Positions 3,474 to 15,177 of a DNA stretch of 20,000 nt are shown piece after piece. A program made the translations under genes and the position numbers. This DNA is from an uncultured virus (IMG/VR IMGVR_UViG_3300042891_001399). Lineage: Duplodnaviria; Heunggongvirae; Uroviricota; Caudoviricetes. The stretch lies in the IMG/VR virus record IMGVR_UViG_3300042891_001399; one strand, 5' to 3'. Within the stretch, counting starts at the first letter, position 1; every line of letters starts with the position of its first letter. The notes beneath the pieces were generated by a model. That model ran no database searches. It had not been told where the DNA came from and saw only the letters and a program-made list of their open reading frames with translations.

Positions 3474-3584
3474 ATGAAAAGACAAGAACTAGCTTGGGAT
3501 GAATACGGAAACCCCGTAATCATAGAAATTGATGACGATAACAATGTAATTGATTCGGATGAATTATTGGATAAACTCAAATAG
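3474..3584 (+). CDS. Small acidic protein, 36 aa (not in ORF track)
   Basis: MKRQELAWDEYGNPVIIEIDDDNNVIDSDELLDKLK*. Starts right after the -7 element and overlaps the next gene's ATG at 3559. Confidence 0.65.
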   Translation: MKRQELAWDEYGNPVIIEIDDDNNVIDSDELLDKLK

Positions 3585-3879
3585 TGGTGATTATATAGTT
3601 GAAGACGGTGGACAACATCGTCTTCATTTAATTTCAAGATGGATGGATAATGTCTTCCAACCAAGTGAAATCATTGAATTAACTCAATCTCAATTTGAGT
3701 CAATTAAAGGTTTCATACCTATTAAAGAAAAGAAATTATTTTCTCGGTTAAATACGTTCAATCCGGGTAAAAGATACGCACCTACTTTATCAGATGGTAC
3801 TAAAGGCAAATCAACAAGAGTTGAAGTACCAACTGTTCAAGACGCAAGAGAACAAAGGTTAAAAGAATTAGGATTATAA
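3559..3879 (+). CDS. Hypothetical protein with C-terminal REQRLKELGL tail
   Basis: ATG 3559 preferred over TTG 3550. TAATG-coupled to the next gene. Confidence 0.75.
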   Translation: MNYWINSNSGDYIVEDGGQHRLHLISRWMDNVFQPSEIIELTQSQFESIKGFIPIKEKKLFSRLNTFNPGKRYAPTLSDGTKGKSTRVEVPTVQDAREQRLKELGL

Positions 3880-4331
3880 TGGATGAATTTGTAAAACAAA
3901 TCACAGATAAGTGGAAAGAAATGATTGATTCTACTACTGTTAGTGGATACTCACGCAAAGTAGAATCAGTTAATTACTTCAGAATGGATAAATGGTATAC
4001 TGGTTATCCAGAGATTGAATTCTGTTATAAAGTTACTTTTAATTTTGAAGATGGAATCTCCAATTCAATTTATTCTAATGTGACAAATCCTTATATTGAT
4101 AATGCTAAAGAAAAATGGCATAAAAGAATAGAAGATAGATTTACTAATATGTTTTGGAATCCATCCGATGAAGTTATGCCAAGAGCCGGTTCTAACTCTG
4201 GTGAAACCAAATTTGAAAATAGTAAAGTTGATTATATGACTAATCAAGGTTATAGATTTATTATTCAGTTTTATCCAAAAGGATTTGTGTCGGAATTTAG
4301 AAATGAAAAATTAAAAGAGTTAGGTATATGA
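3879..4331 (+). CDS. Hypothetical protein with C-terminal RNEKLKELGI tail
   Basis: 150 aa, coupled on both sides (TAATG and ATGA). Confidence 0.8.
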   Translation: MDEFVKQITDKWKEMIDSTTVSGYSRKVESVNYFRMDKWYTGYPEIEFCYKVTFNFEDGISNSIYSNVTNPYIDNAKEKWHKRIEDRFTNMFWNPSDEVMPRAGSNSGETKFENSKVDYMTNQGYRFIIQFYPKGFVSEFRNEKLKELGI

Positions 4332-4990
4332 AATTAAGACCAGACTATATAGAAAGAATAAAAAAGCTAGAGGATCTTAAATTTAATAACTTTTTAATTA
4401 AAGATAAAAACATACATCATATAAGTAACCATGCTCGCGGTAATCTATATGATAACATCACAAGAATAGATTTCAACGCACTTTATCCAAATATTTTAAT
4501 TGGTCTTTTTAATGAGGGTTTATTGAATGAAAAGTGGAAAAATGATATTAATAAAGTTAAATGGTTCTTAGAAAATAGATCTGATTTAAAACTATTGAGT
4601 CCAGATGAATATGGAAAATGGAAAATACACTGTAATTCACTTTATATTAAAATAAAGTCACCGTATGTAGTTGAGTATATGAATATATTTTATTCAGAAC
4701 TAATTGAAAAATATGGAGACCTAATAATCTATATTGATGTTGATAGAATTTATTTTAAACTTAGTAAAGAAGAATTTCAAACCAAAACAAACATTGAAGA
4801 GTTAAATGATTTTAATTATTATGTTGAATTCATTAATTACTTTTATGCTGAGGAATTAAAAAAATATATAGAACAGGACTCTTTCGGTCAATTGGCTTGT
4901 TCAGGATTTAAAGAACCAAATAAAACGAATTTAGAAAACCTAATTAAAAGAGAAATCCGAAGAAGAAAATTAGACAATTTAGGAATATGA
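4328..4990 (+). CDS. Miniature family-B DNA polymerase palm-like protein with C-terminal RRRKLDNLGI tail
   Basis: PolB-like motifs in the correct order: A = DFNALYPNIL (D48), B = KIHCNSLY (K99), C = YIDVDRIYF (D137/D139). Only 220 aa, no exonuclease domain. Confidence 0.7.
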   Translation: MKLRPDYIERIKKLEDLKFNNFLIKDKNIHHISNHARGNLYDNITRIDFNALYPNILIGLFNEGLLNEKWKNDINKVKWFLENRSDLKLLSPDEYGKWKIHCNSLYIKIKSPYVVEYMNIFYSELIEKYGDLIIYIDVDRIYFKLSKEEFQTKTNIEELNDFNYYVEFINYFYAEELKKYIEQDSFGQLACSGFKEPNKTNLENLIKREIRRRKLDNLGI

Positions 4991-5948: not shown

Positions 5949-6347
5949 ATGAAATATCTAAAAAAGTTTAATGAAAATGTGGCTGAGAAGTATCTACAAA
6001 TGCATGAGATACTTAAAGATGTATTTGCTGAGTTGATAGATGATACTACTATTCAAGTAGAGTTTGGATATGAATCCGATGATAGTGAAATACTTGTTAC
6101 TATAAAACCTTGGACTAAAACACAAACAGCTGGTTTGGGACTTTCTATGATGAAGCCTACTGAAATGACCACAGAACAAATGGTTGAAAGATATTCAAAA
6201 TATCTTGAGTTAGTTAAAGATATTGAAGTTTGTTATAAAAGAGCAGTTGATGAATTAAATACCAAAGGTAAATTAATGGTAGCTGTTGATAATAGAATTT
6301 ATATGGCATTCCAAATACCAGGTGCTAAAACAGAATATCCTTTTTAA
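5949..6347 (+). CDS. Leader-tagged protein (MKYLKKFNE), divergent member of the repeated DILLELxD domain family
   Basis: Leader followed by EILKDVFAELIDD. Confidence 0.8.
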   Translation: MKYLKKFNENVAEKYLQMHEILKDVFAELIDDTTIQVEFGYESDDSEILVTIKPWTKTQTAGLGLSMMKPTEMTTEQMVERYSKYLELVKDIEVCYKRAVDELNTKGKLMVAVDNRIYMAFQIPGAKTEYPF

Positions 6348-6622
6348 TGAAATACTTAAAGAAATATAAAATATTTGAGAGTGATTCTTTCAAATGGGTT
6401 GAAGAGAATAATAAATTAAAAATAAAATTTGAATTCAAAGATTTTAACGAGGCTTTAGATTTCATAAATAAATTAGCATCTATCTGTGAATCAATGAATC
6501 ATCATCCTGAAATTAATTGGGTTTATAATAAAATTGAACTTACTTTATCTACACATGACGATGGTGATAAAATTACAGAACTAGATTATCAATTAGCAAA
6601 TAAAATAGATGAGATAATATAA
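6347..6622 (+). CDS. phhB: Pterin-4-alpha-carbinolamine dehydratase (PCD/PhhB family) with N-terminal MKYLKKYKIFES leader
   Basis: FKDFNEALDF, NHHPEI, LSTHD and ITELDYQLA are PCD family signatures. Confidence 0.9.
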   Translation: MKYLKKYKIFESDSFKWVEENNKLKIKFEFKDFNEALDFINKLASICESMNHHPEINWVYNKIELTLSTHDDGDKITELDYQLANKIDEII

Positions 6623-7984: not shown

Positions 7985-8333
7985 GAGGTTTAATGTAGTT
8001 GTTGAAACTATCTTTTAAACCTTTTAATTCAAATCCCATTGATCTATAAAGATTATTAGCAACTGTATTATCAATCTCAGTATTTAACTCAATTGATTCA
8101 CACATTCTTTGCTTACATCTAACGATAGCATTTTCAACTAATCTTTTACCATAACCATTACCACGGTGAGAATTAAGAACTTCTACCGAATAAATAGAAG
8201 CTTTATTTTCATTGTATATTAAAAGTAAACTACCTACTTGTTGTTCACCTTTAGTGATGAATAATAATTCAGTATTAAGTGGTTGTACATTAACACTTAC
8301 TTTTTCGTTGATTAATTCTGTTAGTTTTTTCAT
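7977..8333 (-). CDS. GNAT family N-acetyltransferase with leader MKKLTELINE
   Basis: Acetyl-CoA motif VLNSHRGNGYGKRLV and C-terminal NTVANNLYRSMGF. Confidence 0.9.
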   Translation of the reverse strand: MKKLTELINEKVSVNVQPLNTELLFITKGEQQVGSLLLIYNENKASIYSVEVLNSHRGNGYGKRLVENAIVRCKQRMCESIELNTEIDNTVANNLYRSMGFELKGLKDSFNNYIKPLN

Positions 8334-11392: not shown

Positions 11393-11766
11393 ATCCATTA
11401 AAAATTAGTTTTGATTTTGATTGTACGTTAGGTGAAGATATCATTCAGCGTAAAGCCAATCTATTGATTAAATCTACTGAGTATTGTAATGTTTATATTA
11501 TTACTGCTCGTTGTAAGGATCAAAAAAATCCAGATGTTTATTCCGTTGCTAAAAGATTAGGCATACCTGAGTCTAATATTCACTTCACTGAAGGTGCTTG
11601 GAAATGGCATAGGATAAAAGAGTTAGAAATTGATATACACTTTGATGATGTTCCTGAGGAATGTGAATTGATATCCAACAACACAAATTGTTTACCACTT
11701 TTAATTTGGGATGAATTTTGTAAAGAGTCAATTAAACACGATTCATTTGGTAACGGAATCTACTAA
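11389..11766 (+). CDS. Small HAD-superfamily phosphatase
   Basis: ISFDFDCTL, IITAR, K and IHFDD motifs. The start at 11389 (ATGA overlap) is preferred over 11362. Confidence 0.8.
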   Translation: MNPLKISFDFDCTLGEDIIQRKANLLIKSTEYCNVYIITARCKDQKNPDVYSVAKRLGIPESNIHFTEGAWKWHRIKELEIDIHFDDVPEECELISNNTNCLPLLIWDEFCKESIKHDSFGNGIY

Positions 11767-12884
11767 TTAATCATGTCAAAATAGATATAAACTTGCTCGC
11801 GTGAACTACCTTCATTGATTATCTCTTGCCTTACTTTAAAACCAGTGTCTGTTAAATAATCTTTGACTCTTTCTAAGGTATCATTTACTTCATTCCAAAA
11901 TTCATCATGTGGTAATCTTTTAAAATTTTTAATCCAAACATATGGACTTTCTGAAAATCCCTTTGTAAATCCACTAAGTTGAGGTCTATATCCTAAATCA
12001 GTTATCTCTAAAAGAATCTCTCTTAGATATTTTTCTAATTCTTCTCTAACTGGATTACCAGGTCTTTTCCAGTCAGCATCATACTCAATTTTTGACTCTG
12101 ATATATTATCTTCTTTGTTACTTATAATAACTTTAATATAATCAATAGGTACTTTATAATTACCTATTATTGTAACATCATTTTCAATTAAACCATCTTC
12201 TGATTTAGAACTTAAATGGTCAATACATTGTGAATTACATATACTTTCTATTTCAATATCATAATCTTGACTAACATATGAAATTAGATGTTGTAAAGCT
12301 AGTACAAACTCTTGACCCGGTATATAAGGCAATGGTCTTGGTTCATCACTAAATCCATAAGTATCAAACTTCTCAATATAGATTCTTGTTACTTCACCTA
12401 CACCACCTCTATTGTATTCAACTTTGAAACCAAGGTCTTCTATCTCACGGAAGATATCTTCAATGTTATTTAGAACTTCTTTATTAGAATTAGATTCTCT
12501 AATAATAGGTGAGTTAGTCATACTACCATGTTTATCAAATTTGAATACAGCAAAATGATTACCACCAGACATACCTCTTGGATTCATACCATATGACTTT
12601 AATGTTTCTATGAAATCTTGTATAGTATCAGTAAAATATAAATCAGCATTAAATCTTTCATTGTCATCAGTTACTTTCATAATTATAAACTTCTTATAAT
12701 CATCTGTATATCTTGATCCGGTATGAATAGAAACTCTAGGATCTCTAAGTAAATAAGAATGTGATCCATTAATAACTTCAACTTGAAGACCCTCATCTTG
12801 AAGCTCTAAAGATAAATCTTTAAGTAACTGAATCTTCTTATCAACAAGTGATTCAAATAGTTTATATTTCTTTAGGTACTTCAT
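11763..12884 (-). CDS. Leader-tagged (MKYLKKYKLFES) putative polyprotein with three copies of the repeated domain
   Basis: KDLSLELQDEGL / EDIFREIEDLGF / REILLEITDLGY, separated by IRES and ISES. Confidence 0.85.
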   Translation of the reverse strand: MKYLKKYKLFESLVDKKIQLLKDLSLELQDEGLQVEVINGSHSYLLRDPRVSIHTGSRYTDDYKKFIIMKVTDDNERFNADLYFTDTIQDFIETLKSYGMNPRGMSGGNHFAVFKFDKHGSMTNSPIIRESNSNKEVLNNIEDIFREIEDLGFKVEYNRGGVGEVTRIYIEKFDTYGFSDEPRPLPYIPGQEFVLALQHLISYVSQDYDIEIESICNSQCIDHLSSKSEDGLIENDVTIIGNYKVPIDYIKVIISNKEDNISESKIEYDADWKRPGNPVREELEKYLREILLEITDLGYRPQLSGFTKGFSESPYVWIKNFKRLPHDEFWNEVNDTLERVKDYLTDTGFKVRQEIINEGSSREQVYIYFDMIN

Positions 12885-13731
12885 TTGGTATAAATTCTAA
12901 TTTTACTTTTTGTATCATTCCTATGACCTCCGAAAGATCATCAATAGTATCAAGGTTCTCCCAATCAACTGGATACTTAATAGATAATAAAGTTTTAAAT
13001 CCTTCAGATGACATATAATCTTCTATTCTTCTACAAGTCTCAATAAACCATTCTGGAAATGGACCAAACCCACTTCTTTTCTCATCTTGTTTAATTATTC
13101 TTCTGTCAATATCAATTGATAAATAAAAAGGTTGTTTTATACTTCCAAGATGTCCTCTACTTTTTAGAGAAACAATATTTAGATGAATATCATTTTCTGG
13201 AGATATTTCACATTTACAGTTATTATCTTCAAACTCTTGACAGATATCTTTAATGGTGGAAATAACTTCTCTAAATTCTACAAATCTTGATTCAAAAATA
13301 TCTTTATCAATTGTGTATTTTCTCTTAAAAGGCGATACTCTTGGATTATTATAAATAAAAATATTAATGTGATATAATTCTTCACCGGAAAATTCTTTCA
13401 TAAAATCATCAATATCTGAATAACCATCGGAGTTAAGTATTCCTAAATCAATTGAATAATCACTATCTTTTAGATAGTCTTTTATTCTTAATAAAACATC
13501 CATTATATCTTCTAATCTGAAAAATCTATCTTGATTATCTTTAATATAAACTCTTAAACAATCTTCACCATTTATACCATCTTTATAATATTTAACCGCT
13601 TTAACATTATATTCAATCTGATAGTCAGTTAGCTCTAATAATATATCTTCAATGTCAGCTTTTATTTCTTGAGCGTTTCGGTAATCAGAGGCTAATGATT
13701 CAAATAACTTATATGATTTTAAATATTTCAT
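12862..13731 (-). CDS. Leader-tagged (MKYLKSYKLFES) putative polyprotein with two copies of the repeated domain
   Basis: EDILLELTDYQI / KDICQEFEDNNC, separated by KRKYTIDKDIFES. Confidence 0.85.
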   Translation of the reverse strand: MKYLKSYKLFESLASDYRNAQEIKADIEDILLELTDYQIEYNVKAVKYYKDGINGEDCLRVYIKDNQDRFFRLEDIMDVLLRIKDYLKDSDYSIDLGILNSDGYSDIDDFMKEFSGEELYHINIFIYNNPRVSPFKRKYTIDKDIFESRFVEFREVISTIKDICQEFEDNNCKCEISPENDIHLNIVSLKSRGHLGSIKQPFYLSIDIDRRIIKQDEKRSGFGPFPEWFIETCRRIEDYMSSEGFKTLLSIKYPVDWENLDTIDDLSEVIGMIQKVKLEFIPNEVPKEI

Positions 13732-13736
13732 TAGAC

Positions 13737-13745
13737 TATATATTA
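13737..13745 (-). promoter_or_regulatory. Putative phage late promoter TAATATATA
   Basis: TAATATATA-GTCTA-ATG(13731). Confidence 0.7.
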
Positions 13746-13811: not shown

Positions 13812-14519
13812 ATGATTTATATACAATCCGACACCGATAGAAAATTACCACATCACTTTGATTGTGCCTGTGGACTCTATGGTGCTTTAGACCATGGACA
13901 AGACATTCGTCTGACTACATTTGAAGAAGTTCAGTCTGGTAAGTTTGATAACTTAATTAAGTTAAATTTATTTATAGGCTCTGTTGAGTTTATGAAAGAA
14001 GTTTTTTCAAGAATTGGTAAAAACAATATTAGAGTTCCTGAAAACTCAAATCGTGATTTTAAATCAATGACATTAGGTGAGGCTAAGATATTATCTAAAT
14101 CTAAAAGCATTTTCATTAAACCTTTTGATATTAAATTATTCACCGGTTTTGTACTTGACCAAATGATTAACATGTCAATATCAAGTGTGTCGGATGATAC
14201 AATGGTGATGGTATATGATGTTTTCTCAAGTCCAATTAGAAGTGAATGGCGTTGTTATATCGGAAGAGATAAAGTTGTTGACATTCGTAACTACTCTGGT
14301 GATATATTTACCACACCAAGTAAAGAGTATTTACAATCAGTTTTTGATTCAAATAGGTCTAAATTTCCAACCGCTTATACAATTGATATTGGGATTTTAG
14401 AAAATGGAGATAATGTAGTAATTGAATATAATGATATGTGGGCTATTGGTAATTATGGTATTGATAATTATGAATACTTTAGTTTGTTAAAATCAAGATA
14501 TTTTGAAATAGTGAGATAA
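13812..14519 (+). CDS. ATP-grasp domain protein (DUF4343/R2K-like)
   Basis: FIKP...KLFTGFV, SEWRCYI, AYTIDIG and VIEYNDMWAIGNYG. Confidence 0.8.
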   Translation: MIYIQSDTDRKLPHHFDCACGLYGALDHGQDIRLTTFEEVQSGKFDNLIKLNLFIGSVEFMKEVFSRIGKNNIRVPENSNRDFKSMTLGEAKILSKSKSIFIKPFDIKLFTGFVLDQMINMSISSVSDDTMVMVYDVFSSPIRSEWRCYIGRDKVVDIRNYSGDIFTTPSKEYLQSVFDSNRSKFPTAYTIDIGILENGDNVVIEYNDMWAIGNYGIDNYEYFSLLKSRYFEIVR

Positions 14520-14932
14520 TGAATAATTACATTTTTACAGATATAGATGGTGTTCTAAACACAATTAATAGAAATCAGTGGAATAAAACCTCTATTGATT
14601 TGTATAATAAATTGTGCCATGAATTTAATTTAAAGCCTGTTATTTCTTCTACATGGAGATTGAATCATACAAAAGAACAACTTCAGAAGATATTTACTGA
14701 ACAGGGCGTAACTGTTACTATTTATGACTTCACAGATTCTTTTCCAGATGAAGGTAGAGGTCGTGAAATTGAAGATTGGATTTTTAATAACTCTTATGAT
14801 AAGTTTATTATATTAGATGATAGTGTTAGAGATATAAATGCTTGGGGTTTGCCTAATGTGGTTAGATGTAGAGGATGGATAGGCTTTTCTGAAGAAGAGT
14901 ATGACTTGGCGGTTTCTTTATTAAAAAAATGA
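14519..14932 (+). CDS. HAD phosphatase, Swiss-Army-Knife RNA-repair-like (HAD_SAK_2)
   Basis: FTDIDGVLN, VISSTWR, RGREIEDW and FIILDD. Confidence 0.85.
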   Translation: MNNYIFTDIDGVLNTINRNQWNKTSIDLYNKLCHEFNLKPVISSTWRLNHTKEQLQKIFTEQGVTVTIYDFTDSFPDEGRGREIEDWIFNNSYDKFIILDDSVRDINAWGLPNVVRCRGWIGFSEEEYDLAVSLLKK

Positions 14933-15177
14933 GAGTTGTTTGTATTAAAAAGTTAAATGCGGAGGGTAGTAATGTTAGTAATCTAACAGAGGGTAAACTG
15001 TATAATATTTCCATTTTACCGACACCAGTACCAGAGGGTGATGAAATGGATGAAAACCCAAAAATAAAAAGATGTATAGTTTGGAGTGATGATGTAAATA
15101 GCGAATATATTTATCCGCTTGAAGCTTTTATAAGTTTAGAAGACTGGAGAAATCAAAGACTTGATAATTTATTATAA
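14929..15177 (+). CDS. Hypothetical protein with C-terminal RNQRLDNLL tail
   Basis: 82 aa, ATGA-coupled to the upstream gene. Confidence 0.75.
   Translation: MRVVCIKKLNAEGSNVSNLTEGKLYNISILPTPVPEGDEMDENPKIKRCIVWSDDVNSEYIYPLEAFISLEDWRNQRLDNLL

Follow-up and report, generated by a model that had tools for sequence, protein, structure and literature searches.

Two neighbouring genes of an uncultured virus, P0001 and P0002, raise the question of whether the short sites between their modules are marks at which a head protease cuts the encoded chains. Both genes lie on the minus strand of a 20,000-nucleotide stretch of IMG/VR record IMGVR_UViG_3300042891_001399, which is the whole stretch of DNA analysed and is termed the window. 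Each of them encodes a short N-terminal leader followed by several modules in one open reading frame (ORF), and the modules are parted by a short recurrent site, termed the joint, as in a polyprotein. Genes that start with such a leader are termed tagged. The original prediction, made from this DNA alone, was that one leader imports a chain of several effectors, which the prohead protease cuts apart. Comparison with relatives confirms and generalises the observation behind this prediction and partly supports its interpretation. The sequences indicate that the joints derive from the leader, are under selection and fit the cut rule of T4-type proteases, and that the joint motif is probably a head-protease cut mark. 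The features of the two genes are as follows (aa, amino acids; AF2, AlphaFold2; pLDDT, predicted local distance difference test score; H, helix; E, strand).

11763-12884, minus strand: gene P0001, 373 aa, leader and modules D1, D2 and D3, ORF intact
12849-12884, minus strand: leader of P0001, MKYLKKYKLFES, residues 1-12, ending in L-F-E|S; pLDDT <50 at residues 1-11
12504-12848, minus strand: module D1, residues 13-127; AF2: H13-30, E34-39, E66-72, H86-97, E104-117
12492-12503, minus strand: joint 1, I-R-E-S, P0001 residues 128-131; pLDDT <50 at 126-135
12105-12491, minus strand: module D2, residues 132-260; the stand-alone tagged P0105 is 95% identical
12093-12104, minus strand: joint 2, I-S-E-S, P0001 residues 261-264; pLDDT <50 at 259-264
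11766-12092, minus strand: module D3, residues 265-373; stand-alone tagged genes P0181 and P0185
12862-13731, minus strand: gene P0002, 289 aa, leader and modules E1 and E2, ORF intact
13696-13731, minus strand: leader of P0002, MKYLKSYKLFES, residues 1-12; pLDDT <50 at residues 1-17
13300-13695, minus strand: module E1, residues 13-144; AF2 model; 95% profile match to D3
13288-13326, minus strand: decayed internal leader KRKYTIDKDIFES, P0002 residues 136-148
13288-13299, minus strand: joint I-F-E-S, P0002 residues 145-148, preceded by KRKYTIDKD; pLDDT <50 at 133-149
12865-13287, minus strand: module E2, residues 149-289; stand-alone tagged P0293, P0307 and P0308
12862-12884, minus strand: overlap of P0001 and P0002, 23 bases; the P0002 end shares its DNA with the P0001 leader, in another reading frame

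The motif [ILV]xES is confined in P0001 and P0002 to the leader ends (LFES) and the three joints (IRES, ISES and IFES), at the positions originally given for it. The new N-termini foreseen for the cut products, SNSNKEV, SKIEYDA and SRFVEFR, agree with the translations, and the helix motif h-x-D-h-x-x-E-h-x-D-x-G follows each joint, as had been noted for the internal sites. The 29 ORFs of the window contain [ILV]xES 13 times in 6064 aa (2.1 per 1000, as compared with 1.1 per 1000 from composition); five of these motifs are located in P0001 and P0002, and four are the leader ends of other tagged ORFs. The count of three internal motifs in 638 residues is only mildly unusual (Poisson P 0.03 to 0.16), but all three are located inside the 33 inter-module residues with pLDDT <50 in the AF2 models, for which the chance is 8e-6 to 6e-5. 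The joints are predicted from these models to be flexible. The breakpoints of BLAST alignments with 341 relatives cluster at residues 128-134 and 257-265 of P0001 and 138-149 of P0002.

These relatives were collected by three protein searches, which gave 102, 153 (120 listed) and 161 (120 listed) matches. They include three-module full-length homologs of P0001 with identities of 41-86% and, among the matches listed, a P0002 family of 70 full-length members (P0002 and 69 homologs) with identities of 42-97%. The joints were located without reference to the motif, by comparing the segments downstream of the leader with all proteins by BLAST and retaining the internal matches. The sequence [ILV]xE[SA] is present at 90 of the 114 distinct joint contexts and in 39 of 570 length-matched control windows from the same proteins, and the corresponding counts for [ILV]xE are 102 of 114 and 209 of 570, the P values for such comparisons being overstated because the joint contexts are related by descent. 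Twelve of the 24 joints without [ILV]xE[SA] still have [ILV]xE. The 20 contexts without the wider [ILVFY]xE[SA] include those with T, K, E, G, V, L or N at P1', TNES, TTDLLS, four D1 tails cut short before the motif, and two joints in which Glu is replaced by Asp (ISDS and LNDS). The xES joints, the conservation of which was a test of the original prediction, are kept in homologs down to 30-40% identity.

The ends of the modules differ depending on whether another module follows. When D1 is followed by any of about ten modules, its tail carries hydrophobic-x-E-[SATG] in 41 of 41 distinct cases, whereas this motif is missing in 5 of 5 terminal D1 tails, which end in ..SPLIRN, ..SPFLRK, ..SPLLKDY and similar sequences. 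The D2 tails before D3 read ..N-[IV]-S-E-[SEGVA], with one ISDS, whereas terminal D2 stops just before the Glu residue (..ISNKD, ..NKEDN and ..DEIS). A search with D3 alone against 1.84 billion protein representatives gave 51 matches, of which 48 were examined; all 11 internal D3 copies among these 48 are preceded by x-x-E-[SAGT], and between 0 and about 18 residues separate E-S from the D3 core. The difference between tails with and without a next module, together with the variable spacing before D3, indicates that the motif is specific to the joint and is not part of the flanking folds.

Relatives also encode the modules as separate tagged genes, as the original prediction proposed to check. 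Four of the five modules (D1, D2, D3 and E2) occur as stand-alone genes behind the same leader, to which they are joined exactly at E|S. Tagged D1 is present in LR756502 and LR745206. The stand-alone D2 gene P0105 has the leader joint ..KIFES|DSNKEM, stand-alone D3 has ..NLFES|IEYDADW, and stand-alone E2 has ..KLFEA|RF... P0032 consists of leader, D2 and D3 with the joint ..KLFES|NSNKEV, and the corresponding joint of P0001 is ..PIIRES|NSNKEV. A stand-alone E1 is not found among the collected relatives; relatives of 213 aa have E1 and its tail, KRKYT-V-DKDIFE-[AT], in fusion with another module. The locus L006, which comes from an IMG/VR record of 155 kb, shows synteny with the window, and the same slot in it contains, in order, a 404-aa chain of other modules, tagged E2 and tagged D2. 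The E2 gene in this slot is as follows.

L006 9998-10459: stand-alone E2 in the syntenic slot, 153-aa gene

In P0083, P0084, P0086, P0095 and L003 1278-2594, D3 is either present or absent between a 2H phosphoesterase (2_5_RNA_ligase2/Acb1-like domain) and a DEDDh exonuclease (RNase_T). The enzyme chains containing D3 have the joints INES/ISES and LNEN and a variant leader, ..QFIKES, and these phosphoesterase/exonuclease chains could be anti-signalling enzymes that use the same joint code. P0001 and P0002 are natural fusions, in frame, of small alpha/beta modules found elsewhere as separate genes, and the collected homologs make up a mosaic family.

The joints can be arranged in a decay series, from full internal leaders (..RYLRKYNLL[KN]ES) through the P0002 sequence KRKYTIDKDIFES to the minimal joints SPIIRES and DNISES. 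That the IFES stretch of P0002 is a decayed leader, as originally suggested, is borne out by the alignment of 17 of the 26 E2-only matches from residue 138 of P0002 with residue 2 of their own leader. In the P0002 family, 48 of the 48 distinct linker strings (70 members) keep x-E-[SA], and the part upstream of it contains indels and substitutions. P2 of the joints is R, S, K, F, L or N, and P3 and P1 are retained. The E-S codons vary among the copies (GAA TCA, GAA TCT, GAG TCA and GAG AGT), which indicates that selection acts on the peptide. Leader DNA and joint DNA have no extended identity left, which gives no hint that gene conversion is still at work. These sequences indicate that the targeting part of the leader has been decayed or deleted at the joints, while [ILV]-x-E-S has been kept by selection. 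The joints arose by fusion through leaders; L006 has the same 23-base overlap between E2 and the next tagged gene, and a single indel in the overlap of start and stop regions would fuse P0001 and P0002 through a full leader.

At the joints, the targeting part has gone and P3 and P1 remain, which is the pattern that the T4 model predicts for internal release sites. According to the available text of PMC9026906, T4 gp21 cuts after L/I-X-E, as the original prediction had assumed; residues 4 and 7 of the 10-residue capsid targeting sequence (CTS) serve targeting, and residues 8 and 10 (P3 and P1) serve processing. The same text states that Asp at P1 blocks processing, and that IPIII or CTS fusions bring foreign proteins into the head.

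Head genes were read in relatives. Those with the strict leader encode a Gp23-family capsid protein (89-97 bits), which is distantly related to the capsid proteins of Lak phage, Tenacibaculum phage pT24 and cyanophage (gp23). A protease-scaffold gene of roughly 700 aa is located about 2 kb from the capsid gene, and the N-terminal domain of its product matches Peptidase_S80 with 24.5 bits (cut-off 23.4) in one relative. In the relative termed G001, this protein, which is encoded at 32744-34882 and has its protease domain in the first roughly 170 residues, contains 37 [ILV]xE in 712 aa (5.2 per 100 aa, as compared with 1.64 for the proteome), including IRES at residue 15, LNES at 166, 440 and 640, LSES at 544, and ten Y-[LI]-A-E-[NH] repeats. 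In the capsid protein of the relatives, ..S-I-N-E|N.. is retained at residues 41-45, ahead of the part that matches Pfam Gp23, and this is presumably its maturation site, by analogy with T4 gp23. A PDB sequence search with the protease domain of the relatives gave nothing relevant. G002 (155 kb) and G003 (59 kb) have no protease match, which is uninformative since both are fragments. The cultured phage pT24 has zero copies of the strict leader DNA pattern and is therefore unsuitable as a model; the protease-scaffold of this Bacteroidota jumbo phage (L038 4355-5938, annotated as prohead core scaffold) is rich in x-E-S and might give experimental access to the specificity of the protease.

The window has a G+C content of 29%. 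When a phage collection was searched with its DNA and proteins, all matches were to uncultured huge phages of 635-642 kb. As judged from these sequences and the head genes of the relatives, the source of the window is best explained as a huge phage, uncultured and very rich in A+T, that has a head module of T4 type.

The N-termini of P0001 and P0002 read M-K-Y-L-K-K/S-Y-K-L-F-E-S, with LFES at residues 9-12. The consensus of the leader is M-K-Y/H-L-K-x-Y-K-L/I-F-E|S, with roughly 11 residues before the cut-like point. This type of leader is present on 9 of the 29 larger ORFs of the window, and a near-identical one, defined by one regular expression, on 276 of the 341 relatives. Among 105 distinct leaders, P3 is L in 61, I in 36 and V in 4, P1' is S in 92 and A in 6, and P2 is F in 102; the regular expression itself fixed P3 as [LIMVK], P2 as [FSL] and P1 as E, so that the informative points are the spread within these sets and the unconstrained P1'. 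A strict DNA pattern of the leader gave 24 occurrences in LR745206 and 11 in G001, and none in reversed-pattern controls. When 53 tagged ORFs of G001 were scanned, 48 had no Pfam family, and the rest include a NUDIX plus kinase protein, a 2H phosphoesterase and a nucleotidyltransferase. By analogy with T4, the leader may be a capsid-targeting signal. Four stand-alone genes (P0133, P0149, P0281 and P0324) have a doubled leader, MKYLKKYTLY-[KE]-RVSKETK-[IL]-FES, in which a second cut-site-like end follows a variant first one.

A promoter-like sequence is located immediately upstream of P0002.

13736-13745, minus strand: TAATATATAG, promoter-like, 4 bases before the start codon of P0002

This motif also precedes other genes of the window and, in the relatives, the gene of the head protease. 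The form TAATATATA[CT] precedes the window genes starting at 1037(-), 3421(-), 5949, 6634 and 9903, and those starting at 8333(-), 9795(-), 15230 and 19128(-); it is 3-7 bases or about 20-35 bases away from the start codons. The promoter-like motif occurs 123 times in G001 and precedes 96 of its 437 ORFs, namely 26 of 57 tagged and 70 of 380 untagged ORFs. The possibility that the leader is an RNA-level element, such as the start region of a leaderless mRNA, was considered and rejected: 30 untagged genes share a promoter spacing of 3-8 bases, 31 of the 57 tagged genes have no promoter motif, the synonymous codons of the leader vary, and the leader has internal copies.

P0001 and P0002 have no match in Pfam or PHROG families, and no peptidase family is detected in either by a Pfam scan. 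All five modules are predicted by AF2 to have the order helix-strand-strand-helix-strand-strand. Profile-profile comparison gives probabilities of 95% for D3-E1, 69% for D2-E1, 58% for E1-E2 and 33% for D2-D3, whereas D1 reaches at most 12.5% with any other module, and only in the first helix motif. The original prediction regarded the modules as repeated copies of one domain. This is partly justified: homology is supported for D3-E1 and, less strongly, for D2-E1, E1-E2 and D2-D3, so that only some of the five modules are detectably homologous at the sequence level. Foldseek searches of PDB and BFVD with the P0001 model gave nothing at an E of 0.001 or better. The best match of this model by VIA-align wide (Z 8.1) is part of a nitroreductase and involves D3 only; D3 also matches tail-terminator-like proteins with Z of 6-7. 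Such values are in a range that the tool calls a common arrangement, and neither a fold nor a function is therefore assigned. The ESM Atlas places D3 in unnamed viral clusters only.

The joint motif matches the P3/P1 rule of the Glu-cutting prohead proteases of both T4 type and phiKZ type, which makes loading through the leader, followed by actual cutting by the head protease, the most likely mechanism suggested by these sequences, and one that is held with middling confidence. By this mechanism, a single N-terminal leader would take the whole module chain into the assembling prohead, and the head protease would then remove the leader and cut every joint after Glu, so that the same mature modules would be released as from stand-alone genes. 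We infer import into the capsid, cutting at the joints, its place and time, and any effector role of the modules. It is proposed, more tentatively, that the N-terminal address and the minimal [ILV]-x-E-S release site form a portable two-part code, with the head protease as the universal releaser. Modules might then move, fuse or split at E|S with the mature product unchanged, and one leader might load a multi-cargo chain into the capsid; both of these proposals are equally tentative.

Several observations, besides the shared descent of the joint contexts, weigh against loading and cutting by the head protease. P0001 and P0002 are both acidic (pI, isoelectric point, of 4.9 and 4.7), unlike the lysine-rich internal proteins of T4 described in the available text of PMC3012670. 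The broad class of leaders is found on 57 of 437 G001 ORFs (about 13%). One of its members is a PQ-loop membrane protein with a leader-like N-terminus (G001 142092-142766 (-), L024 2092-2766), the sequence of which argues against reading every protein of this class as capsid cargo. The same leader, as MKYLKKYKIFES, is located on a pterin-4a-carbinolamine dehydratase in the window (6347-6622 (+); 87 bits for Pfam Pterin_4a, with the domain starting at residue 16), which would be an odd capsid cargo. The arrays of tagged genes adjoin genes for nucleotide metabolism and replication and lie outside the head module, and the distance of the motif [AT]AATATATA[CT] from the start is 3-7 bases for tagged genes but about 21 bases for head genes. 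Terminal D1 tails also hold part of the joint (SP-I/L-I/L-R), so that the hydrophobic P3 of the D1 joint is perhaps a residue of D1. Of the 11 internal joints in distant D3 relatives, 6 have a hydrophobic P3, and the other 5 have T, Q, K or S in this position, which misfits a strict L/I-x-E rule. With 16.7-22.7 bits, the relatives' protease does not reach the Peptidase_S77 cut-off of 27, and both this gene and the capsid gene were read in relatives with 56-74% identity in these modules.

If the proteins remain uncut, the joints would be scars of fusion or recombination that are kept as flexible hinges between modules arranged as beads on a string, and their match to the protease rule would be a by-product of descent from the leader. 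Leader fusion is plainly the origin of the joints, as the full and decayed internal leaders and the 23-base overlap indicate, modules are exchanged exactly at E|S, and the D1 joint is partly D1's own tail, all of which suits this explanation. A neutral scar, however, should decay evenly, yet at these joints the upstream leader is lost while P3, P1 and P1' persist, even at 30-40% identity and across about ten downstream partners. Only two of the 114 joints have Asp in place of Glu, and gene conversion between leader and joints has left no sign of being ongoing. Uncut chains are therefore regarded as rather unlikely. It is more improbable that the leader and joints are read by something other than the head protease, such as a cytoplasmic protease of the phage or host, or a sorting or assembly system that recognises an amphipathic N-terminal helix, and that the modules are not capsid cargo. 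The broad distribution of the leader, which extends to a membrane protein and metabolic enzymes, the acidic modules, the location of the tagged arrays and the mostly short promoter spacing of tagged genes would all be accounted for in this way, whereas the strong enrichment of the motif in the protease-scaffold of the relatives, its presence in the N-terminus of their capsid protein, and the parallel between the layout of the leader and the T4 CTS (available text of PMC9026906) would not; moreover, Pfam and PHROG scans of the window proteins identified no other protease or sorting system. Finally, the motif might be a tetrapeptide that is common in an AT-rich proteome and is found near domain borders by accident. 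The number of internal motifs is indeed only mildly above expectation, but their confinement to the inter-module residues, their excess at joints over control windows and their lack in terminal modules make such a coincidence hardly credible. Leader-mediated loading followed by cutting thus remains the preferred reading.

Other genes of the window are also of note. An R2K-clade ATP-grasp gene followed by a HAD_SAK_2 gene occupies 13812-14932 (+), and this pair is conserved beside the module slot in L006; such domains occur in 'Swiss Army Knife' RNA-repair proteins. Three consecutive ORFs at 3550-3879, 3879-4331 and 4328-4990 (+) share the C-terminal motif [RK]-L-[KD]-[EN]-L-G-[LI], and the last of them has a weak PHROG match to DNA polymerase. 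The ORF at 14929-15177 (+) ends in RLDNLL. A C-terminus of this type is found in only 2 of the 437 G001 ORFs, and the motif shared by the window ORFs is possibly a C-terminal tag.

If the joints are cut, they would represent a natural polyprotein strategy for capsid cargo in tailed phages, and would extend the capsid-targeting paradigm of T4 from single tagged proteins to shuffled chains. A simple rule (leader, [ILV]xES joints and borders at E|S) would then predict virion-delivered proteins in uncultured huge phages, the genes of which are mostly unannotated, and would provide defined neo-termini for metaproteomics. Cut joints would also suggest how engineered phage heads might be designed to take up several proteins. 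The portable code, if true, would explain how dozens of different proteins are shipped with the phage DNA. Uncut joints would still represent unusually clean module shuffling at a fixed four-residue joint. A literature search, without supplements, found no paper describing the leader or polyproteins of this kind in huge phages, or leader-derived release sites between cargo modules in tailed phages.

The closest known system is the CTS of T4, which is present on IPI-III and Alt and is processed by gp21. As described in the available text of PMC9026906 and PMC3012670, it is a short N-terminal leader common to otherwise unrelated proteins, it ends in L/I-x-E and a small residue, and its upstream residues serve targeting while P3 and P1 serve processing, a division of roles that would also apply to the present leader. 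The relatives of this phage have genes for a gp23-type capsid protein and a putative gp21-like protease. The present leader differs from the CTS in that it has another sequence, is one residue longer and is present on a far larger share of the proteome. In addition, its cut-site end recurs between modules within one chain, the modules are acidic, and the system is known from sequence alone. P0001 and P0002 have no homology to IPI-III or Alt in Pfam and PHROG, and their matches in the phage collection are only to uncultured huge phages.

The head proteolysis of phiKZ, 201phi2-1 and SPN3US is similar in that a protease of the same clan cuts after Glu at a short motif; in phiKZ-type phages, many head and ejection proteins are processed, and a substrate may have several copies of the motif (available text of PMC10052503 and PMC9026906). 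According to the former source, in the part available, the cuts identified in SPN3US, self-cleavage aside, all yield N-terminal propeptides, and multiple sites are located within the discarded propeptide. In P0001 and P0002, by contrast, each segment between sites is a predicted folded module, and mostly also a gene of its own. The polyvalent proteins of Iyer et al. 2017 (available text of PMC5512222) are also shuffled multi-module proteins that are predicted to accompany the DNA and to be processed into parts; they are defined by known conflict-related enzymatic domains, often with an embedded peptidase, whereas P0001 and P0002 have no enzymatic or peptidase domain recognisable by Pfam, and their processing is proposed to occur in trans at leader-derived sites. 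The engineered T4 fusions with IPIII or the CTS resemble the proposed mechanism in that one leader imports a chain of unrelated parts that the protease trims (available text of PMC9026906). Those fusions are laboratory constructs, whereas the chains described here would be natural and evolutionarily stable, with cut sites between every cargo.

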